IMG/VR virus record: IMGVR_UViG_3300021368_000002
Reading direction: 5' to 3' (one strand)
Length of the DNA: 64,000 bases
DNA from: a virus
Taxonomy: Duplodnaviria; Caudoviricetes
Positions 12,160-54,861 of the stretch are shown piece by piece (position 1 is the first letter of the stretch; each line of letters starts with the position of its first letter). The position numbers were made by a program, and so were the translations under genes. Below the pieces are notes generated by a model. The model did no database searches, was not told where the DNA came from, and was given only the letters and a program-made list of their open reading frames with translations.

Positions 12160-12423
12160 AAAAAAGTGTTGCATCTCTGCAACACTTTTCTAGCCGTTTG
12201 GTAACAAGGTGGACCAACCCCGTGAATCATGCCGCTAGGGCTAACTCAGGTGCAAAGTTATCGTTTGCATTTGTGTTTTGTAAACTTGCCTACCTGTCGA
12301 ATCCTATTTCGCCCCCATCATAATTACTCTACGCCGTAAATTTGTGGTTTTTACGCTACAGAGTAATTATGGTGGAGGCGCCCGGTACCGCCCCGGGGTC
12401 CAAATACGCTTTGTAACGCCTAC
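12160..12423 (-). ncRNA. ssrA: Circularly permuted (two-piece) tmRNA; tag ANDNFAPELALAA*
   Basis: Acceptor piece GGACCCCGGGGCGGUACCGGGCGCCUCCACCA ends at 12370; intervening hairpin 12317-12369; 5' end GGGGGCGAAAUAGGAUUCGAC at 12316; tag frame 12268-12227; TTGACA-N17-TATAAA promoter at 12458; terminator at 12159-12190. Confidence 0.95.
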
Positions 12424-12438
12424 GATTTATTTATAGCA

Positions 12439-12636
12439 TCACTGTGATTTATTGTCAAGATAATTTTTTATATTTGGCGCAAATAAAGCCACCAACCCAA
12501 AGATAAGTAAAAATACAAACCAACCTATTGCAATATAGGCTCCTGCTCCCCATTCGTAATCTACATACATAGGTGCAAAAATAGCACTTGCTATACCTGC
12601 TAAAATACAAATTGTCCAATATATTTTTTTACCCAT
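12439..12636 (-). CDS. Small two-TM membrane protein
   Basis: Two hydrophobic helices. Confidence 0.5.
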   Translation of the reverse strand: MGKKIYWTICILAGIASAIFAPMYVDYEWGAGAYIAIGWFVFLLIFGLVALFAPNIKNYLDNKSQ

Positions 12637-42002: not shown

Positions 42003-42050
42003 ACTGACGCTATATTGTATGTATAGTTAGAAACAACGGAGGGCAATCCA

Positions 42051-42269
42051 ATGGCAACAGATTTGAAAAGCACCACAGAAGATGTTAGTTTGACTCGCTT
42101 CTGGGGTGGCAAAGACCGCGGAACTTGTGTTCAAGTCACAACCACATACACCGCTCGTAGAGAAGACTTCTTCAAACATATATCGTTGACTCGAGAACAG
42201 GCTCGTTCTGTTGCTGAGGATTTGATGGCATTTGCTGAAGGTAATGAAGAGGCAGACTATTCATTATGA
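42051..42269 (+). CDS. Early hypothetical protein
   Basis: Promoter and GAGGGC leader. Confidence 0.65.
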   Translation: MATDLKSTTEDVSLTRFWGGKDRGTCVQVTTTYTARREDFFKHISLTREQARSVAEDLMAFAEGNEEADYSL

Positions 42270-42807: not shown

Positions 42808-42864
42808 CACGAGTGTGATCAGAATGTATTATTAGGGTATAGTTAGAAACAACGGAGGGCTCCG

Positions 42865-43418: not shown

Positions 43419-43488
43419 CAATACAAAAATAGATGTTATAGTAAGAGTATAGTTAGAAACAACAAAACGCCTTAGGAGGGCTCCACAA

Positions 43489-46247: not shown

Positions 46248-47228
46248 CACACCACGAGGCCCCGCTGTTAGAACCTAGATTACCTACACGACCTACAGGC
46301 CCCGCTGTATGGTCTCTGCGATCTGCGATAAATATCTTTCACATGGCACATGAACGAGATTTTGCAGACGAAACAGACGATCCTTGCGATCACATACCTA
46401 TCGAACGACTGTTGTTATGGTATACGTCAAATGAGCCACATCCTGAATACCCCAAGCAAATAGAAACACGAGATACTGAAGGCGATGCCCTATGATCTCA
46501 GTAGTAGAGAAACAGAATCGTAACCGTAAAACCTATTGGGTGGTAGAGCGGAACGGTAGTATATTGCTTATCACACACTCAAAAAGCATTGCCCAAGACT
46601 ATGCAGATAAACTACGAGCCAACACTAGAGACTAGTGTGAGTGCGAGTATAGTTAGAGTGAAAAACGGTGAAAAGTATTTGAACTATGCCTCTCGTCACC
46701 TTCCGTGACTCGAAAAAATTCACACTTAGAACCGTAGAGAACCGTGATTGTTGGATGGTTTTCTGCACACTAGCCACCATTTAACCACCATTGCAGGGCC
46801 CTTAAAACCGTCTTAAAAGGCGAGTTTGACCTTGGTCCACGGCTCGCAGGGAGAGGTGGTTTGAGGGGCCTCCGGCCCCACTTTGCCCCTACTCTACTAC
46901 TACAGTTTCAACCTACTCTGTCGCTAGTAGTGTTTCAACCTAAGACTCTGATTCTGCACATTTTTTCCACTCTTTGCTAGCCGTATATTATACACTCTCT
47001 ACACTATATAAGCAAGTTAAAAGACACATTAACTATACGATGTAACCTACTGTTATTATTAGACTTTTTCCTAAGTATTTGATTTTATTGGATTTTTTCT
47101 CGCGGCCATCGTGGTCTTTCGTTCTTTAGGTGTCGTTCGTTCTTTTTGCGATTTTGGATAAAAAGAGGTTGACAGGTGTGTAGGCAGGTGCTATAGTGTA
47201 TGTATAGTTAGAAATTAGGAGGGCACCT

Positions 47229-47444
47229 ATGCAATACGGAATGTTTACTAAAGAAGGCGATGCGAAAGTCCACAAGTTGGTCCTGCAAGCGAGGCAGTAT
47301 GCGGATTTGGATGGACCGATTAATCCTGTAGAGCAGGCGTGGAATTGGTTGCTAAACGAGCTCCATGCACTAGGCGAGGATCCGGCTTTTGAAGAGGCGA
47401 CCGACACAGCCGTTAGAGAGGCCTGTTACGACAGGCTAATTTAA
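47229..47444 (+). CDS. Early hypothetical protein
   Basis: Promoter and GAGGGC leader; GMFTKEGD and ATDTAVRE segments. Confidence 0.65.
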   Translation: MQYGMFTKEGDAKVHKLVLQARQYADLDGPINPVEQAWNWLLNELHALGEDPAFEEATDTAVREACYDRLI

Positions 47445-47521
47445 TCGCCAAAAGAGGTTGACACTATAGCGAACAGGTGCTATAGTGTATGTATAGTTAG
47501 AAACGCAGAGAGGGCACAATC

Positions 47522-47869
47522 ATGCAATTCATCGTAAGCACACAGGGACTTGAGAACTATGGCGCACACTGTGAGGACGGCAAGTTCCGTTCGGGCAATG
47601 CCTACTGGAAGTTCAAGTCAGGCACGGACTACCTTGTGTCGGGCCTAGAGCGGCCGCAAGATGCGATGGCATTCGTTGCCTCGTTCGGTATGGACAATTC
47701 AATCGGTTGGAAGGAGTTCCCATGCGAGGTTGTGAGCGAGGATGAATGGGAGTCACAGTGGAACATGGACGACGAGTTCGATGTGGAACACAGAGAGTTC
47801 AAGCTCTCTATTATGGTTAAGGTGGATCCGAGAGATCCGGCGACCTACAAACGGTTTTTGGCAAGGTAG
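47522..47869 (+). CDS. Early hypothetical protein
   Basis: Promoter and GAGGGC leader; TQ..ENYGAH..YWKFK.G.DY segment. Confidence 0.65.
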   Translation: MQFIVSTQGLENYGAHCEDGKFRSGNAYWKFKSGTDYLVSGLERPQDAMAFVASFGMDNSIGWKEFPCEVVSEDEWESQWNMDDEFDVEHREFKLSIMVKVDPRDPATYKRFLAR

Positions 47870-47923
47870 GGGTTGACAACCCCGCCACCTGGTGTTATAG
47901 TAGTTGTATAGTTAATAGAGAGG

Positions 47924-48136
47924 GTGATGACAATGTTTGTACTGATTTGGAAAGGTGAAGAGATTGATTCGTTTGAGTCCGAGGCAGAGGCCCGGAGCAT
48001 GGCGAGTGAATACAACATGGCCTACGGTGGAGGTGTCCACGTAGAGTTTGTCGAGGAAGACGACGGACAGCCAAGTTGGGAGCAGGAGTGGGAAGACTTC
48101 GGCGAAGACGCAGGATACGAGATGGAGTATCTCTAA
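47924..48136 (+). CDS. Early acidic hypothetical protein
   Basis: Promoter and GAGGG leader. Confidence 0.6.
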   Translation: MMTMFVLIWKGEEIDSFESEAEARSMASEYNMAYGGGVHVEFVEEDDGQPSWEQEWEDFGEDAGYEMEYL

Positions 48137-48336
48137 AGAGGCCCTCAGGTCGGGAGTATAAACCCAGTTAGACCGGAACACCTACATACAAGTTCCGGCG
48201 GGAGATGGGAAGGCGCCCTCGAGAAAGGCCTCCCACTTTTAACGCCCGCGGTTTTAACGCCCGTGACTTTTTGGGTCCTTTCGTGCGGTAAAAAGGTCAG
48301 AGCTCCGTGCCCTCCCGTTCCAGCTCTCCGGTCCTC
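48130..48336 (-). ncRNA. Candidate antisense-oriented structured ncRNA with three GAGGGC motifs (element A)
   Basis: Minus-strand TTGACA(48371-48366)-N17-TATATT(48348-48343); GC-rich hairpins; GAGGGC at 48314-48309, 48220-48215 and 48146-48141 with no AUG following. Confidence 0.55.
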
Positions 48337-48537
48337 AATTATAATATAGCACAAGCCTAGCACTATGTCAACCCCTTGTGCGAAAAAAGAATCCTTTGTT
48401 TTCAAGAGGTTAGAAAAAAAATAAAAATAAATTTTTCTGCTAAGTCATTGTTTTTAAACAAAACATTTTGCTTTACAAGTACGTATTGTTGTGTTATATT
48501 GTTTGTATGTTAACAAATGCATATAGGAGGGCAACAT

Positions 48538-48852
48538 ATGCAAACAACAACAAAAACATTAGACTGTGCTGTACGTGTAAATTGGGTAGCAGAGGATGCA
48601 GAATGGAAAGCAGAGTTTGAACAGTATGGCTATGACACAGATATGTGGGTTGCTGTAGGTGACTTTGATTATGAATGGAGAGATAACGTAGAAACTGTGG
48701 CTGTATTAAAAGACGAAGAATACGGTTTTATGTGTGGAAACGAAAGTGACAGGCGCTGCTACGGATTTACTGTGGATGTGTACAAAGCAGAGGAAGCAGA
48801 TGGCAACTACAGTTTTTGGATAACAGAGGAAGACTTTGAAAAAATAGGTTGA
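48538..48852 (+). CDS. Early hypothetical protein (TC/CC-free, no Pro)
   Basis: GAGGGC RBS then ATG at 48538. Confidence 0.6.
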   Translation: MQTTTKTLDCAVRVNWVAEDAEWKAEFEQYGYDTDMWVAVGDFDYEWRDNVETVAVLKDEEYGFMCGNESDRRCYGFTVDVYKAEEADGNYSFWITEEDFEKIG

Positions 48853-48913
48853 CAACTGTGTGTATGTGTGCTACTATGTACACATACACTAACAAGCAAT
48901 AGAGGGCAATGCT

Positions 48914-49165
48914 ATGCTTACAAAATACGAAAACGCAGTAACAAAAGCAATTGAATATTTTGCACTGCAAATTAACAACTGTGCGCACGACAGCGTAGTA
49001 GAAAACAACGACTACGGAATTTACGACAGCATAGACAGCATAAACTTTTTGTTTAGCAACTACAAAAATTTTGACAGCGTAACAGCACTTGCAAACTTTG
49101 CACTAGACAGCACACTGGATACTGTAGTGCGCGAAAACATATACTACGTGCTAACGGAAAAATAA
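48914..49165 (+). CDS. Early hypothetical protein (TC/CC-free, no Pro)
   Basis: Promoter and GAGGGC leader. Confidence 0.6.
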   Translation: MLTKYENAVTKAIEYFALQINNCAHDSVVENNDYGIYDSIDSINFLFSNYKNFDSVTALANFALDSTLDTVVRENIYYVLTEK

Positions 49166-49231
49166 CACTTGACAACTGTGTATGTGTGCTATAGTGTACA
49201 CATACACTAAACATAGCAGAGAGGGCAAACT

Positions 49232-49447
49232 ATGCTACAAGTACACATTTTACAACTGCAAGGCACAGGCGACGACGAGAAGGCTTGGGAGAACGCAGGG
49301 GTGTTTGCAAGTTGGGAAGAAGCACAAGAACGTGCAGCAGAATTTAGCAAAGAAGACATTGAGGAGTACGGCGAAGCGTTTTGGATAATGGGCGAGAATA
49401 TGCGTATTGAAACACATGACGTAGTAGACAACAACTGGGGGTACTAG
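49232..49447 (+). CDS. Early hypothetical protein (TC/CC-free, no Pro)
   Basis: Promoter and GAGGGC leader. Confidence 0.6.
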   Translation: MLQVHILQLQGTGDDEKAWENAGVFASWEEAQERAAEFSKEDIEEYGEAFWIMGENMRIETHDVVDNNWGY

Positions 49448-49519
49448 TAAAAAAAACAGTTGACAGCAGCAAGTTTTGTGTTATACTGTATGTACAGTTA
49501 AACAAAACGAGGGCTACGT

Positions 49520-49768
49520 ATGTTAACTACAAAACAACTTGCACGTAATGTGTTTTTAACTTATTGCAGCACTAGCAATACAATGTTTAAACATTGTAGC
49601 AAAACAAAGCCGCAGCACGTTAGCACAACAAACGTAAAAGCAGTAAAGCGCAACGTAAGCGCACAACTTGTGCAACAGTACAAAATGCTTCCTGCACTGT
49701 ACAACTTGTACAACAAAAACAAAAGTGTTAAGCAAACAGCAACACAACTAATTAACAGCATTGTGTAA
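49520..49768 (+). CDS. Early basic protein (GA/GG-free; no Asp, Glu, Gly or Trp)
   Basis: Promoter and GAGGGC leader. Confidence 0.55.
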   Translation: MLTTKQLARNVFLTYCSTSNTMFKHCSKTKPQHVSTTNVKAVKRNVSAQLVQQYKMLPALYNLYNKNKSVKQTATQLINSIV

Positions 49769-49842
49769 AAAAAACTTGACAACTGTGTGTATGTGTGCTA
49801 CTATGTACACATACACTAAACATTGCAACTAGTGAGGGCTAC

Positions 49843-50316
49843 ATGGCAATACATTACAGTACACAGGTACAAGACTACTTTGAACACTTGACAAACGAGT
49901 GTGCAGACGAAACACGTTTTACACAAGACGAAAAGTGTTTTGTGTTAGAATTTTTAGCAAACACACTGTATGGCTTAACGGAAGTAAACAGCGAAAGTTT
50001 GCGTGACGACAAGCAATTTGTGCGTATGCAAGATTGCAGTGAGGTAGCAGACAACTACGTAATGCTACTAAACAAACACAAACGCAGTGACTATACTGTA
50101 GTAAACGGCAAGTATGTGGAAAGTGACGAATACTATACGTTTACACTAGAAGATGCAGGCACTGCTATTTGCAGTTATGACACAGAGTATAGAGAGTGCA
50201 TAACAGAGCAATTTGAAGATGCACTTAACGAGTACTTTGCATTAAGCAAAGCAAACAAAATTGCAACACTTGATATTGCAAACTGTTTAGCGTGGCGAGT
50301 GTTTAACAGTTACTAA
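49843..50316 (+). CDS. Early hypothetical protein (TC/CC-free, no Pro)
   Basis: Promoter and GAGGGC leader; start MAIHYS. Confidence 0.6.
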   Translation: MAIHYSTQVQDYFEHLTNECADETRFTQDEKCFVLEFLANTLYGLTEVNSESLRDDKQFVRMQDCSEVADNYVMLLNKHKRSDYTVVNGKYVESDEYYTFTLEDAGTAICSYDTEYRECITEQFEDALNEYFALSKANKIATLDIANCLAWRVFNSY

Positions 50317-50513
50317 CGCTAACACTGTGCAGTGTGTGCAAATGCGTACACTGTGCGGCCCCGCTGTATAGCGGATAAAACATAACAAAAACAAGCACTT
50401 ACAAAAAAAATGCTAAGTGCTTGTTTTTAAACGAAACTTTTTGCTTGCATTGTGCAAATAGTTGTGTTATATTGTTTGTATAAATTAAATGTAACAGCAT
50501 AGAGGGTAATAAT

Positions 50514-50774
50514 ATGCAAAACACACAAACAAACAACTATGTATTTTTAGCAGCAGCAAACGCTGCTATTGTTGTAACTGTAAACAACAAAGTTGTTGCT
50601 ACAGACGTACAAACAGCAGACGCACTTGTGCAAGTGTTTTTAACACATAATATTAATGTACTAAAAGACACTATTATGTGTAGCAGCAGCATAGATTTTG
50701 CAGAAGAAGAGGGCTTTGCTAGTGACGCAAGTGCGCATAATATAATAGATGAAGCATTTGAAGCATTAGCATAG
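50514..50774 (+). CDS. Early hypothetical protein (TC/CC-free, no Pro)
   Basis: GAGGG leader; CSSSIDFAEEEGF segment. Confidence 0.6.
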   Translation: MQNTQTNNYVFLAAANAAIVVTVNNKVVATDVQTADALVQVFLTHNINVLKDTIMCSSSIDFAEEEGFASDASAHNIIDEAFEALA

Positions 50775-50879
50775 TACGCTAATACTTTAGTATAGCAAGC
50801 ACTATACAAAAAAGTGCTTGCTATTTTTATTTTTTGTGTTATATTAGTTGTATAAGTTAACAAGCATATGAGGGCTATT

Positions 50880-51149
50880 ATGCAAAATACAACAACAAAA
50901 ACCGCACGTAGCATTGTGCGTAACATCCTAAAGCAAAACAACGTAATGTATTCCTCACATAGTTATACAAACAAATGTGCAAATCCTGCGCTGCGTAATA
51001 TTTGCTTCCTCACTAAAAACTTAACTCCTGCTGTGCTGCAACAAATTGCTTCTTCGCTTAATGTTAGCAAAGTACACGCAACAAAGCCTAAGTTTTACAA
51101 TGTGCATCCGGATGCACGTTACCTACGCATTGTGCATTGCAAAATGTAA
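50880..51149 (+). CDS. Early basic protein (GA/GG-free except one site)
   Basis: GAGGGC leader then MQNTTT; one Asp, no Glu or Gly. Confidence 0.55.
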   Translation: MQNTTTKTARSIVRNILKQNNVMYSSHSYTNKCANPALRNICFLTKNLTPAVLQQIASSLNVSKVHATKPKFYNVHPDARYLRIVHCKM

Positions 51150-51222
51150 AAAAAACGGTTGACAAGTGTGTTTGTGTGTGCTACTATGTACACATAAACA
51201 CTAAAAAGCATAGGAGGGTTAT

Positions 51223-51414
51223 ATGCTTACACTTTGCAACAAAAAACTGCTGCGTGACGGCAGTTGCGTTTTTACAAACTTTAACTTTTACAACAAAGTA
51301 AAAGATGCAGACGGAGACGTGTGCTACTACTACGCAAACTTGCACTACAAAGGCACTACGCAAAAATGCAGTGTTAGTGTGCAAAACGGAAACGTAGTAG
51401 GTTGGCAAACGTAA
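51223..51414 (+). CDS. Early hypothetical protein (TC/CC-free, no Pro)
   Basis: Promoter and GGAGGG leader. Confidence 0.55.
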   Translation: MLTLCNKKLLRDGSCVFTNFNFYNKVKDADGDVCYYYANLHYKGTTQKCSVSVQNGNVVGWQT

Positions 51415-51659
51415 AAAGTTAAAAAAAATGCAAATTAGGGGTTGACAAACGGCTCCTCCTTTGCTATAGTGTATGTATAGTTAGAGAGCGAGGGCAAGAT
51501 GATACGTTTTATGACAGGACTTTTTGTAGTGATGGCAGCAGTAGGTACGCTAGAGGCGAACCACGAGGCGAGCTTGCTATGGTACGGAATGCTAGGCTTG
51601 GTTGGTTGTGCTGCAATGGCATGGCCGGTATGTGACGGAACACTGACAGGAGACGAATA

Positions 51660-51860
51660 ATGGATTGGCGTGAGTATGCACTAGAGCAGGTAGAGATTGG
51701 AACCATCGATCCTGAGCTGCTGGCGACTTGTTTGCTGAAGTATATGTCGCAGGACGACATCCAGGACTGCCTGGACACGAACGAGCTGACCCCTCGTTTC
51801 GCTGACGATCCCAACTTCCCAGCTGAGAGCAGCGATGCAGATATTTGCCTAGTTTGGTAA
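51660..51860 (+). CDS. Early hypothetical protein
   Basis: AGGAG SD; CLLKYMSQDDIQD segment. Confidence 0.6.
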   Translation: MDWREYALEQVEIGTIDPELLATCLLKYMSQDDIQDCLDTNELTPRFADDPNFPAESSDADICLVW

Positions 51861-51933
51861 AAAAGTGGTTGACAGGTGTGTGGTTAGGCCATATACTGTA
51901 AGAGTAAGTTAAACAAAGCAGAGGGCTTTATAG

Positions 51934-52221
51934 ATGAAAACTTTTAGTGTAGCAGGAACTTCGCGTTTGAACGGTACGGTTAAGATTCGCTTTGCAAATG
52001 ACTTTGTAAGCCGTATGAAGGTGCTGTTTAAGAACGGACACGAAGACGTCGAGTTGATCGAACTTGGCGGTGAGTTTACTAAATCCGAAGTTTGCCAGAT
52101 CCTAATGGCACATCCTAACTTCCAATCGGAAGAACAACAAGCAGCGATTTACGAATATGTAATCCGCAACTGCCGTGACATTAAAACCGAAATAGAGGAG
52201 AAGATGCTACAAGAGGCATAA
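51934..52221 (+). CDS. Early hypothetical protein
   Basis: Promoter and GAGGGC leader; VAGTSRLNG.VKIRFAND segment. Confidence 0.65.
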   Translation: MKTFSVAGTSRLNGTVKIRFANDFVSRMKVLFKNGHEDVELIELGGEFTKSEVCQILMAHPNFQSEEQQAAIYEYVIRNCRDIKTEIEEKMLQEA

Positions 52222-52302
52222 GATCACCTCGGGCGAAGTACGGTGAAGCCTACTTCGAGATTGGTAGAGCGGTGGGGCTCCAATCACTTTTCGAATTTCA
52301 TA

Positions 52303-52379
52303 GGGCCATTAGCTCAATTGGTTAGAGCACCGGACTCATAATCCGTAGGTTGACAGTTCGAGTCTGTCATGGCCCACCA
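52303..52379 (+). tRNA. tRNA-Ile2(CAU), or less likely tRNA-Met
   Basis: Cloverleaf GGGCCAT..ATGGCCC-A-CCA; anticodon loop CTCATAA; GACTCATAATC context resembles Ile2. Confidence 0.9.
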
Positions 52380-52382
52380 GAA

Positions 52383-52459
<77 letters not shown>

Positions 52460-52464
52460 ATACC

Positions 52465-52549
52465 GCTCGCGTGGTGAAATAGGTAAACACAACGGACTTA
52501 AAATCCGTCGCCGATAGGCTTGCCGGTTCGATTCCGGCCGCGAGCACCA
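52465..52549 (+). tRNA. tRNA-Leu(UAA)
   Basis: GCTCGCG/CGCGAGC acceptor stem; ACGGA-CTTAAAA-TCCGT; long variable arm; CCA. Confidence 0.95.
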
Positions 52550-52631
52550 AAACTTTTTTTAAAAAAGAGGTTGACAACCGCACTAAAAGATCGTATAGTG
52601 TATGTATAAGTTAAGCAAGAGGGCAAACACA

Positions 52632-52820
52632 ATGATTAGAATTTTTAACTCAGCACTAGAAGGCGAGCGTTGGATTCCACTGGACGAGGTCAACATTGTA
52701 ACACAAGGCATCGATCCTGTGTTTTCATCACCTTACATTTTGTTTGAGCACAAAGACTATCCACTAGGTGCGCTGCGAGCTGAGTTTACAGACGGCCATT
52801 GGGCTGCGGATTTGAATTAA
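52632..52820 (+). CDS. Early hypothetical protein
   Basis: GAGGGC leader then MIRIFN. Confidence 0.55.
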   Translation: MIRIFNSALEGERWIPLDEVNIVTQGIDPVFSSPYILFEHKDYPLGALRAEFTDGHWAADLN

Positions 52821-52889
52821 TTAGGGGTTGACATTCTAACGTTAGAGTGTATACTGTAAGAGTAAGTTAACAAAGGGCAAGAGGCGCAA

Positions 52890-53882
52890 ATGAATATCAT
52901 TATTAACGAAGGCACGTACAAGATACGAGGCAAAGACACTAGTGTAGCCGGTATGGTGTTTCCACTAGTAGAGGAATTTAAAATGGGTGCTGCAGGAGGT
53001 TACGTAACAGTCGACGGCAAGGCAGTCGCAGGCTTTCCAGATCGTAACATCAAGATCAAGGTGTCGGATGCGGATGCATACGAGTCAGTAGATGCTGCAC
53101 CTACGCAGAGAGAAGAGACCGACGAAGAGACCATTGAACGGTTGCGTGAACGATTTGAAATGCTCGAAGACATGACCCGAGCTGCTAAGAAAGGTGATGT
53201 GCGAGCAATGATCGTATCAGGACCTCCTGGTGTTGGTAAGTCGCACGGTGTAGAAAAAGTACTAGGCAAGCACGACTTGATTGCGCAGTTAGGCGATCGT
53301 CCTGCAAAGTACCAGGTGGTGAAAGGTGCTATGTCGCCCATCGGCCTCTACTGTAAACTGTTCAACTATGCCGACAAGGATAATGTATTGGTGTTCGACG
53401 ACTGTGACTCAATCTTCAGCGACGAACTATCGTTGAACATCCTCAAAGCAGCACTTGATTCGAAGAAGACACGTACCATCCATTGGAACACTGATTCATT
53501 CAAGCTACGTAACGAAGGCGTGCCGGATTCATTCGAGTTCAAAGGTTCAGCGATCTTTATCACGAACTTGAAGTTCGACAAGACCAAAGGCAAATTGCGT
53601 GAGCATCTAATGGCACTAGAAAGTCGTTGCCATTACATCGACCTTACGATTGATACCGAGCGAGAGAAGATGCTGCGTATCAAACAGATCGTCGGCGATG
53701 GTATGCTCCGTGAGTACAAGTTCGGTGAAGAACTACAGCAAGAGATCGTAGACTTCGTTGATATTAATAAGAAGCGACTAAGAGAACTGTCATTGCGTAC
53801 AGTACTAAAGGTCGCCGATTTGGCCAAGGCATTTCCTACCAAGTGGGAAGCCATGGCAGAGAACACTGTGATGAAGCGTTAA
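52890..53882 (+). CDS. P-loop (AAA-like) ATPase
   Basis: Walker A GPPGVGKS, Walker B LVFDDCD, FITN and LESRC motifs. Confidence 0.9.
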   Translation: MNIIINEGTYKIRGKDTSVAGMVFPLVEEFKMGAAGGYVTVDGKAVAGFPDRNIKIKVSDADAYESVDAAPTQREETDEETIERLRERFEMLEDMTRAAKKGDVRAMIVSGPPGVGKSHGVEKVLGKHDLIAQLGDRPAKYQVVKGAMSPIGLYCKLFNYADKDNVLVFDDCDSIFSDELSLNILKAALDSKKTRTIHWNTDSFKLRNEGVPDSFEFKGSAIFITNLKFDKTKGKLREHLMALESRCHYIDLTIDTEREKMLRIKQIVGDGMLREYKFGEELQQEIVDFVDINKKRLRELSLRTVLKVADLAKAFPTKWEAMAENTVMKR

Positions 53883-53994
53883 GCCCTCAACGCTCACAGT
53901 GAGTACAGCATACGAGCAACAGCCCTCACGCTCTGCTGTACGTCCGTGGCCCGGGTTGAGCTCTATGCCCTCAGAGCTCCCCGGGCTTTTTTTT
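53865..53994 (+). ncRNA. Candidate three-hairpin sRNA with GCCCUC in every loop, ending in an intrinsic terminator (element B)
   Basis: AGCGTT-aaGCCCTC-AACGCT; GTACAGCA..GAGC-aacaGCCCTCac-GCTC-TGCTGTAC; GCCCGGG..GAGCTCT-atGCCCTC-AGAGCTC..CCCGGGC-T8. Confidence 0.7.
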
Positions 53995-54064
53995 ACCAAA
54001 AGTGGTTGACATATGAGCACAGTGATCATATACTAATAATAAGAGTTAAGGAAACGAGGGTAAC

Positions 54065-54421
54065 ATGAAAAAATTCGCAATCAACACAACATCAAATCTT
54101 CTTTCAGCACTGGTTATTGCAGGCGCGATCTTTGTAGCACAACCTGCCAAAGCCGGTGACGACTTTGTGAAAGGACTGTTTGGTGTGCTGATACTTAATG
54201 AGATTCTAAACAACAACAGTTCGAACCACACACACTCTACGACGATTATCGATCGCCAGGTGTATAACGATCACGCTCGATCAATCCACAGCCGTTCAGA
54301 GACGATCCGTAGAGCAAGCCAACGAACTGTATGCTATTCGGAATACCGTGAAGCAACGAACGGCACGATCGTTCGTTACGATTACAACTGCCAAGGAAAT
54401 GTTCTTTCAGTAAGCAGATAG
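54065..54421 (+). CDS. Secreted/membrane early protein
   Basis: Signal-like AQPAKA followed by a hydrophobic helix. Confidence 0.6.
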   Translation: MKKFAINTTSNLLSALVIAGAIFVAQPAKAGDDFVKGLFGVLILNEILNNNSSNHTHSTTIIDRQVYNDHARSIHSRSETIRRASQRTVCYSEYREATNGTIVRYDYNCQGNVLSVSR

Positions 54422-54488
54422 GGGTTGACAGACACACAGTCAGATCATATACTGTAAGAGTAAGTTAAACAAAGAGAGGGCACACTCA

Positions 54489-54815
54489 ATGACACAAGTA
54501 GCAGTAATCCACACAGCATTCGAAGACACTCCCCGCACTGTAGCACTGGTAGACGCACCAGAAGGCACAGTAGAACAGCAGCTGGAGTATGCTTACCGTT
54601 GGACACAAAACATCATGGACAGTTGGTCAATGAAAGGTGAAGCCGATGGCAACGATCGAGTAACACTTATGGCTCCACTGTATGAAGATGAGAACGGTAA
54701 GCAATGGGGACACCGCAGCACAAGCATGGGAGATCATATGCTGCTAGGCACTACCAAGTACGTAGTATCAGCTGTCGGGTTTGAACAATTAGAGGTTGAC
54801 AGTGTAGCCAACTGA
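54489..54815 (+). CDS. Early hypothetical protein
   Basis: Promoter and GAGGGC leader; HRSTSMGD motif. Confidence 0.65.
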   Translation: MTQVAVIHTAFEDTPRTVALVDAPEGTVEQQLEYAYRWTQNIMDSWSMKGEADGNDRVTLMAPLYEDENGKQWGHRSTSMGDHMLLGTTKYVVSAVGFEQLEVDSVAN

Positions 54816-54861
54816 GGCTATACTGTAAGAGTAAGTTAACAAAGCAAGAGGGCAATACGCT

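Follow-up and report, generated by a model that had tools for sequence, protein, structure and literature searches.

A conserved multi-hairpin RNA at the 3′ end of an early ATPase transcript in marine jumbo phages, with loops complementary to the leader tag of early genes

The 64,000-nt stretch of DNA analysed here (hereafter the window) belongs to the IMG/VR virus record IMGVR_UViG_3300021368_000002 and is part of a large phage genome, whose source is an uncultured marine jumbo phage distantly related to the Pseudomonas phage PA5oct. An earlier note, made from the sequence of the window alone, had singled out a segment at the 3′ end of an ATPase gene, element B, and proposed that it forms an RNA of three hairpins whose loops are antisense to a GAGGGC ribosome-binding motif shared by the early genes. 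We find with high confidence that B represents a structured RNA family that is real, abundant and apparently undescribed. As for its role, we favour the reading that B is an anti-leader RNA borne in the 3′ untranslated region (UTR), comparable to the alphaproteobacterial cuckoo RNAs, which would repress early translation collectively by base-pairing; we put the probability of this reading at about one half.

On the + strand, positions 53860-53996 fold as exactly three hairpins with a minimum free energy (MFE) of -59.3 kcal/mol, compared with -37.2 ± 4.05 kcal/mol for shuffled sequences (z = -5.45; none of 200 shuffles folded as well). Hairpin 1 (53864-53901) presents the loop AAGCCCUC (53881-53888), and its outer 5′ arm codes for N-T-V-M; the stop codon of the ATPase, TAA (53880-53882), falls in this loop, its last two bases lying inside AAGCCCUC. 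Hairpin 2 (53903-53941) has the loop AACAGCCCUCAC (53918-53929) and bears an extended conserved string discussed below. Hairpin 3 (53948-53994), with the loop AUGCCCUC (53965-53972), is an intrinsic terminator, in which a GC-rich hairpin (53948-53987) is directly followed by U8 (53987-53994) on the transcribed strand. The fold proposed earlier, with these loops and with the last hairpin as terminator, is thus borne out, and the cost of opening each of the three loops is approximately 0 kcal/mol. Like 3′-UTR-derived small RNAs (sRNAs) such as CcsR, SorX and CpxQ, B abuts the stop codon of the upstream gene, ends in its sole terminator and is without a promoter of its own. The ATPase transcript that ends in B is driven by an early sigma70-type promoter (TTGACA-16-TATACT; 52828-52855, + strand), and apart from this promoter we found no strong promoter-like site between 52855 and 54006, so B would be made as the 3′ end of the ATPase mRNA or of read-through transcripts.

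Searches against known sequences returned no relatives of B. No Rfam 15 family matched 53860-53996 at the gathering score or at E-values up to 5, and a nucleotide search of 52800-54500 against 50,697 GenBank phage records gave no match. In PA5oct, the closest cultured relative by protein, only a plain hairpin follows the ATPase homologue. A scan of genome contigs for GCCCTCACGCTCTGC yielded only scattered matches in unrelated bacteria, which we took to be chance.

To follow B in relatives, we examined ATPase homologues at 79 loci from IMG/VR and 80 loci from JGI/ENA metagenomes; a metagenome scan with the ATPase alignment, aimed at intermediate relatives, brought in just close homologues (identity of at least 71%) and enlarged the data set, with more than 588 stretches matched in all. 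After removal of duplicates there were 136 distinct downstream elements, 127 of which carry two to six GCCCU motifs that start at or just past the ATPase stop codon at a median spacing of 40 nt. The loop word is GCCCTC in 360 of 392 motif instances, the remainder being GCCCT followed by A, T or G. The commonest loop across relatives is GUGCCCUC, and the motif adjoins the 3′ strand of the stem. The earlier note had made its reading depend on conservation of the loops in related phages, and at the level of these unique elements they are conserved.

The stems that hold this word open covary. Of the 175 motifs examined in MFE folds, 160 sit unpaired within a hairpin loop; when the motif was forced open, at least six spanning base pairs enclosed 97.8% of 366 instances, and the native flanks folded at a median of -19.0 kcal/mol, against -10.1 kcal/mol when the 3′ flank was swapped for that of another hairpin (p = 8e-140). 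We then aligned 104 distinct hairpins on the motif without gaps, choosing the register on the inner three pairs and leaving pairs 1-7 out of the choice. Paired cells made up 73.4% of this alignment compared with 47.7% in shuffles, double changes were present at all 10 stem pairs, and the covariation score was 0.68 against 0.23 in shuffles (0/500) and at most 0.205 in slid-partner controls. These motif-anchored analyses replaced an attempt with MAFFT and RNAalifold on whole three-hairpin elements, which recovered only the base of the terminator (6 pairs) because stem lengths differ too much.

Hairpin 1 offers a further view of stem maintenance, as its 5′ arm consists of Asn-Thr-Val codons. Measured from the stop codon, the position of the first GCCCU is -1 to +5 nt in 85 of 131 unique elements, and an exact Watson-Crick complement of the element's own ACNGTN is found downstream in 45% of elements, compared with 3.5% for those whose arm differs (an 8-nt exact version of this test was too strict, and the 6-nt version was used). 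Synonymous changes in the Thr and Val codons are therefore compensated in the non-coding 3′ arm. In the relative L051, about 700 nt have been inserted between the ATPase stop codon and the array (L051:2186-2900), and the array is intact beyond the insertion, with GCCCTC at 2910, 2947 and 3059. Hairpin 2 is conserved in another manner: GCCCTCACG is present in 92 of 131 unique elements, as is the longer string GCCCUCACG, and the conservation of the 15-nt GCCCUCACGCUCUGC (53922-53936 in the window), which covers part of the loop and the 3′ arm, far exceeds what the stem needs. The hairpin 2 loop of many relatives also bears a second word, CCCCUC.

Several features mark the strand and the singularity of the element. 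The loop-closing pair is U.G in 61 hairpins, U-A in 16 and C-G in 11, with no mismatch among these 88 cases; on the opposite strand the 61 U.G pairs would become C.A. Runs of at least four T follow the last loop in 91 of 127 elements, whereas A runs ahead of the first loop are seen in 11 of 127. On the closing-pair bias and the 3′-side T runs, the functional strand is that of the + strand transcript. The array is present in a single copy per genome: across five contigs with lengths of 237-358 kb (one rated complete), the B locus was the only place with GCCCTC pairs at close spacing, bar one likely chance hit, and the reversed pattern gave zero hits in the same five contigs.

The counterpart of the loop word is found in the leaders of the early genes, which form a block of small + strand open reading frames (ORFs) at approximately 39.4-55.2 kb with a consensus sigma70 promoter ahead of nearly each one. 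GAGGGC occurs 30 times in the window, compared with 11.4 ± 3.6 expected (0/100 shuffles reach 30), and the 16 sites listed in the earlier note are all on the + strand, each 3-8 nt ahead of the ATG of a promoter-proximal ORF. A motif count and a check of start regions confirmed their coordinates and their split into ten GAGGGCA and six GAGGGCT. The GAGGGCA sites lie at 42039-42044 (ATG at 42051; predicted pairing with B -10.4 kcal/mol), 47219-47224 (ATG 47229; -12.7 kcal/mol), 47510-47515 (ATG 47522), 48527-48532 (ATG 48539), 48902-48907 (ATG 48914), 49221-49226 (ATG 49232), 51490-51495 (ATG 51499), 52619-52624 (ATG 52632), 54476-54481 (ATG 54489) and 54848-54853 (ATG 54862). The GAGGGCT sites lie at 42855-42860 (ATG 42865), 43476-43481 (ATG 43489), 49509-49514 (ATG 49520), 49834-49839 (ATG 49843; a predicted 11-nt duplex with loop 2, -12.6 kcal/mol), 50870-50875 (ATG 50880) and 51921-51926 (ATG 51934). 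A further + strand GAGGGC at 50709 was absent from that list. The leader of the ATPase itself carries the shorter AGGGC at 52874-52878 (+ strand), 11 nt ahead of its ATG and upstream of a separate GAGG, with a predicted pairing to loop 3 of -7.6 kcal/mol.

Across the main clade we collected 824 distinct promoter-proximal leaders, defined as following a TTGAC-N16-19-TAnnnT promoter. AGGGC lies within 16 nt of the ATG in 595 of them (72%), 485 of these being GAGGGC, compared with only 42 of 446 (9%) first-ATG ORFs without a nearby promoter, which use AGGAG-type sites or none that is recognisable. The tag-ATG distance is 5.3 ± 2.0 nt and that from the tag to the -10 box is looser (23.3 ± 4.8 nt); because the tag is positioned by the ATG and not by the -10 box, it is a feature of the translational level. 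Its consensus is G-AGGGC-A-A, and the remainder of the tagged leaders is 51% A and unstructured. On whole contigs, GAGGGC-N3-9-ATG sites gather in the 10-15 kb around the array (11/13, 19/24 and 9/12). The complementarity extends to a seventh position, as the base 3′ of the leader motif is A in 70%, U in 18%, G in 8% and C in 4% of cases, and the base 5′ of the loop motif follows the rank-order complement of these frequencies (U 56%, A 31%, C 12.5%, G 0.5%). Some leaders in L024, L063 and L079 contain two tandem AGGGCAA units.

Predicted pairing energies, calculated as the sum of a loop-only duplex and the cost of opening the target start region, set the early leaders apart from every other class of start region. 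For the 21 promoter-proximal start regions in the window the median was -10.5 kcal/mol, with none above -7 and 18 reaching -9 or lower, whereas the 60 other start regions had a median of about -3.1 kcal/mol with one at or below -9 (Mann-Whitney p = 3e-11). GAGGGCA is predicted to pair at -12.3 kcal/mol with loop 3 and at -6.1 with the canonical anti-Shine-Dalgarno (anti-SD) sequence, and AGGAGG shows the reverse (-4.0 and -9.2 kcal/mol). By these predictions the loops, which need next to no opening, form an accessible seed selective for the proposed target ribosome-binding sites over non-targets, in line with the complementarity claimed earlier. Duplex prediction between the whole of B and a leader was discarded, as it gave unrealistically long duplexes with positive net energies.

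Loops and tags are also linked on the ATPase tree, which we rooted on the clade L068-L073 (52% identity). This outgroup has neither GCCCUC loops nor tagged leaders. L038 branches next, followed by L149/L155/L156, each with one GCCCUC loop (in hairpin 1) and one tagged leader of 9-12, and all 137 remaining rows, the crown, carry two to six loops and mostly tagged leaders, the exception being L051 with its insertion between ATPase and array. Loops and leader tag thus co-occur at the clade level, jointly present or jointly absent. The L149 group keeps the three-hairpin fold with the motif in loop 1 only, and one CCCUCC loop is unique to it. In L149 the sole tagged leader is that of the ATPase itself, with a 10-nt perfect match to loop 1 (GAGAGGGCUA against UAGCCCUCUC). 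This distribution fits a history in which the loop-tag system began as a 5′-3′ pair within the ATPase mRNA and later spread to the whole array. Leader design is different in L038, where GGAG sites in five leaders (802, 1136, 2220, 4150 and 5521) are preceded in the same leader by AACUCC, which looks like a built-in anti-SD; its loops comprise one GCCCUC and one GCCCCUC variant.

Under the reading we favour, B would be a modular array on the 3′ end of the early ATPase mRNA, in which the invariant GCCCUC is displayed unpaired, towards the 3′ side of loops about 8 nt long, and the last hairpin doubles as the intrinsic terminator. The loops would pair with the AGGGC(A/U) tag, usually in the Shine-Dalgarno (SD) region, through 7 bp of GAGGGCA:UGCCCUC or GAGGGCU:AGCCCUC. 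Accumulating as a stable RNA, B would occlude ribosome-binding sites across the early array and lower early translation, and middle and late genes with ordinary AGGAG-type sites would be spared. Pairing in vivo, the repressive effect, the stability or processing of B and its role in timing are what we infer from these patterns. In broader terms, and tentatively, this lineage of lytic jumbo phages may label its early array with a private 6-7-nt tag that one multi-loop RNA reads, switching off or co-regulating the block.

Several observations weigh against this reading. Neither member of the motif pair varies in the crown clade, and compensatory change therefore does not prove intermolecular pairing. 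We also sought a within-genome excess of extended complementarity and found none, the best leader-loop duplex averaging 7.08 nt both within genomes and between permuted genomes, and the ATPase leader matched its own B over 7.06 nt compared with 6.99 nt for the B of other genomes. The co-occurrence of loops and tags may reflect a single evolutionary event or few, because the lineages in the low state are basal. In L056, L125, L151 and L159 the tag, AGGGCAAC, comes directly after the -10 box, that is, at the 5′ end of the transcript, and a separate AGAGGG serves as SD; because of these 5′-end tags, SD occlusion is not the whole story and a pure anti-RBS (ribosome-binding site) reading is too narrow. 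The complementarity claimed by the earlier note stands, and its purely anti-RBS scope does not, as the tag lies away from the SD in some subclades. A complementary partner for the 15-nt string of hairpin 2 was sought in the window and none was found, a hint that this hairpin may have a further role, perhaps in protein binding or in processing. Stoichiometry is a further difficulty, since one B-producing promoter faces about 24 leader-bearing promoters, and B must therefore be much more stable than the mRNAs.

RNA-level data belong among these observations as well. Two DNase-treated marsh metatranscriptomes contained exact contigs from many early genes and none across B, at a depth of 2-6 fold, and they likewise had no contigs from the adjacent minus-strand block (55.35-57 kb); because of this depth, and because contigs are blind to ends and strand, the absence of contigs over B neither supports nor refutes the proposed RNA. 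A third, much smaller run from a 27-Mb DNase-treated marsh metatranscriptome contained 6 of 12 sampled B words and was not among the runs matching the surrounding 4 kb, a hint that would suit an abundant and stable B.

We weighed four other explanations. The first, which we regard as unlikely, is that the array is a protein-binding platform or decoy, whose GCCCUC loops are recognised by a protein and whose complementarity to the leaders is incidental. Under this explanation the binder could be the neighbouring ATPase, a translational regulator of the phage, an RNA-binding protein of the host, or a host enzyme (nuclease or deaminase) acting on single-stranded YC. A sequence-specific loop binder would likewise keep loops constant on stems that vary freely, the same ATPase gene accompanies the array throughout, and in the CcsR/cuckoo RNAs the product of the upstream ORF binds the RNAs (PMC8034643). 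The conserved hairpin 2 string with no RNA partner found in the window, the lack of per-genome intermolecular covariation, and a neighbouring 3-kb island purged of TC and CC, which suggests a YC-directed activity, all agree with a platform. However, a protein would leave unexplained both the exact complementarity of loop and tag, including the matching frequencies at the seventh position (U/A/C in the loop against A/U/G in the leader), and their joint appearance on the tree, and we found no recognisable RNA-binding domain in the ATPase.

It is distinctly unlikely, in our view, that B acts purely in cis, as a 3′ UTR that combines an efficient terminator with exonuclease-blocking hairpins and possibly autoregulates the ATPase alone by 5′-3′ pairing. 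The terminator is common to B and the ATPase mRNA, hairpin 1 overlaps the stop codon, the ATPase leader itself bears AGGGC, and the basal L149 group, with its single tagged ATPase leader matching loop 1, has just such an arrangement. Yet stability or termination alone needs no invariant loop sequence repeated two to six times, the tag extends beyond the ATPase to about 72% of all early leaders in the crown clade, and the ATPase leader matches its own B no better than that of another genome.

Pairing of loops and leaders could instead have a positive or protective effect, shielding leaders from a 5′-end-dependent or SD-directed endonuclease or tethering early mRNAs, which we think improbable. 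Tags at the transcript 5′ end, away from the SD, in several subclades would suit such protection, as would the production of B together with its targets and not later; on the other hand, in most cases the tag overlaps with the SD at a distance of 3-8 nt to the ATG, where known C-rich-loop RNAs that pair block 30S binding (PMC4615179), and the A-rich, unstructured leaders offer no inhibitory structure to relieve. That B is a DNA-level element forming single-stranded hairpins (an origin of replication, a signal for priming or packaging, or a PeSL-type recombination hotspot) is very improbable, for although it is unique per genome and sits where promoter cassettes are seen joined to one another in metagenome contigs, the closing pair of 61 of 88 hairpins is a G.U on the + strand and would be mismatched (C.A) on the opposite one, U-run polarity favours a + strand transcript, the array is tied to a gene's stop codon and ends as a terminator, and described PeSL stem-loops lack a conserved loop motif (PMC4122927).

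The earlier note had paired B with a second structure, element A, as B's sponge; neither this role nor a description of A as a single minus-strand sponge found support. Element A consists of two units. The left half (48173-48240, + strand) comprises a CCGGAAC/GTTCCGG hairpin, a terminator hairpin (GGGAAGGC/GCCTCCC) and a T run, and the terminator has a 13-nt loop (48215-48227) that starts with GCCCUC. It is kept with compensatory stem changes in L003 and in L014/L100/L103, following a tRNA gene in L014, and is possibly a second effector of B's polarity. In the right half (48290-48371, - strand), a consensus promoter (TTGACA-17-TATATT, 48371-48343) is followed by a T run and a weak hairpin that displays GGGAGGGCAC; no other part of A could present GAGGGCA on the minus strand and thereby serve as a decoy for B. 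We found one homologue of it among 159 loci (in L015, oriented as the ATPase), and its fold is no better than shuffles (z = -0.67). Folded whole, element A gave z = -1.21 on the + strand and +1.21 on the - strand, and for the 70-aa ORF upstream of A we found only short fragments elsewhere. Because the left half itself carries a GCCCUC loop and the right half is poorly conserved and has no significant fold, a sponge role is unsupported.

The gene that carries B (52890-53882, + strand) encodes a 330-aa AAA-type ATPase of the T4 NrdC.10-like family phrog_1250, with a weak domain match (AAA_16); the 5′ arm of hairpin 1 is made up of the final codons of this gene. The family is large, with 1307 matching phage records, and is often wrongly labelled 'thioredoxin' in GenBank. 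The window also encodes a ribonucleotide reductase, a DnaB-type helicase and tail-fibre-like genes, and the helicase and ATPase are nearest (46-53% identity) to those of the Pseudomonas jumbo phage PA5oct and the Agrobacterium phage Atu_ph07. Just 5′ of the ATPase promoter lie three tRNA genes, tRNA-Met(CAT), tRNA-Arg(TCT) and tRNA-Leu(TAA) (52303-52549, + strand), over which summed depth in metagenome and metatranscriptome contigs is far higher, with many loose ends from the tRNAs of other organisms. A permuted, two-piece transfer-messenger RNA (tmRNA) gene at 12187-12462 (- strand) scores 77.6 bits with Rfam tmRNA_permuted and 69.3 bits with alpha_tmRNA, and this alpha-type form hints at an alphaproteobacterial host.

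Two further observations concern the early block. TC and CC dinucleotides are missing from an island of early genes (48447-51453, + strand), in the stretches 48447-49610, 49693-50358, 50363-50901 and 51125-51453, where C still makes up 14-18% of bases; the flanking early DNA has about 4.5-5% each of TC and CC. This loss suggests avoidance of a YC-directed nuclease or deaminase, and the loops of B are built of exactly the dinucleotides purged from the neighbouring island. In addition, DNA contigs from marsh metagenomes join different promoter cassettes within 47174-52575, skipping 0.3-5.3 kb (two examples are the joints 47221 to 47526 and 47226 to 52551). Within a single sample, related phages appear to differ by whole gene cassettes swapped at repeated promoter-leader units, in the manner of PeSL-type modular shuffling.

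Temporal control in lytic phages has been attributed to proteins such as sigma-factor modifiers, RegB and RegA, and known phage small RNAs derive mostly from prophages and act on host genes. A search of the full-text literature on GCCCUC in phages and on phage sRNAs with early genes as targets did not turn up an account of B. If B does read the tag and co-regulate the early block, it would be the first known case in which the temporal programme of a lytic phage is set by a riboregulator of its own, and developmental timing in phages would gain a further layer; it would also explain why an unusual GAGGGC ribosome-binding motif is kept only on promoter-proximal genes. The tag and loop would then form a compact, orthogonal tag/antitag pair usable as a synthetic translational switch. 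More than 130 natural sequence variants of B are already available. The B family is abundant in coastal and estuarine metagenomes, and since a single scan matched more than 588 ATPase homologues, such a circuit would be ecologically widespread.

On the target side, the promoter-leader units fit the description of the PeSL cassettes of T4-like phages, in which a terminator stem-loop, a sigma70 early promoter, an SD and a start codon precede each small early ORF and mediate modular shuffling (PMC2839356, PMC4122927), and the metagenome contigs are joined at such cassettes. However, a text search of PMC4122927 revealed no conserved loop complementary to the SD, and B is a single multi-hairpin locus present once per genome, not a cassette repeated before each gene.

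The closest likeness of B itself is to the cuckoo/CcsR RNAs (RSs0680, SmelC397 and others). These consist of two to four adjacent hairpins that each show the same C-rich, anti-SD-like loop word on stems varying by compensatory mutation (PMC4615179), and the Rhodobacter CcsR RNAs originate in the 3′ UTR belonging to the upstream ORF's mRNA (PMC4615179, PMC8034643). The resemblance noted earlier holds for architecture, as B too is a row of hairpins (two to six) with covarying stems and a loop motif that is invariant, placed in a 3′ UTR, but it does not extend to membership: the loop word is GCCCUC in B and CCUCCUCCC in the cuckoo/CcsR RNAs, B is unmatched by any Rfam family, and its upstream ORF encodes a 330-aa AAA ATPase in place of a DUF1127 protein. 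B also resides in a lytic-type jumbo phage, whereas those RNAs reside in alphaproteobacterial chromosomes, and its motif fits the phage's own early-leader tag better than a generic SD.

C-rich loops are used similarly by regulatory RNAs of Gram-positive bacteria, where RNAIII of Staphylococcus aureus (hairpins H7, H13 and H14) and RsaE/RoxS pair with the G-rich SDs of many mRNAs; in RNAIII and RsaE such pairing at the SD position blocks 30S binding, and the terminator hairpin of RNAIII carries a targeting loop. The actinobacterial 6C RNA is another C-rich-loop regulatory RNA (PMC6486639). B shares with this group several hairpins with C-rich loops and would, like RNAIII, have a targeting loop in the terminator hairpin. 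It differs in having no sequence relation to any of them, in being the tail of an mRNA and not an independent gene, and in its proposed targets, which are the phage's own early array, recognised through a dedicated 6-7-nt tag.

In purpose, the proposed system is nearest to that of phage T4, whose RegB endoribonuclease cuts GGAG in early SDs (PMC3014915) and whose RegA is a translational repressor. RegB and RegA would share with B the collective post-transcriptional silencing of early mRNAs via a short RBS motif, but the T4 effectors are proteins and the candidate effector here is a base-pairing RNA, so that B, if it acts as we propose, would be an RNA-based counterpart of RegB and RegA.

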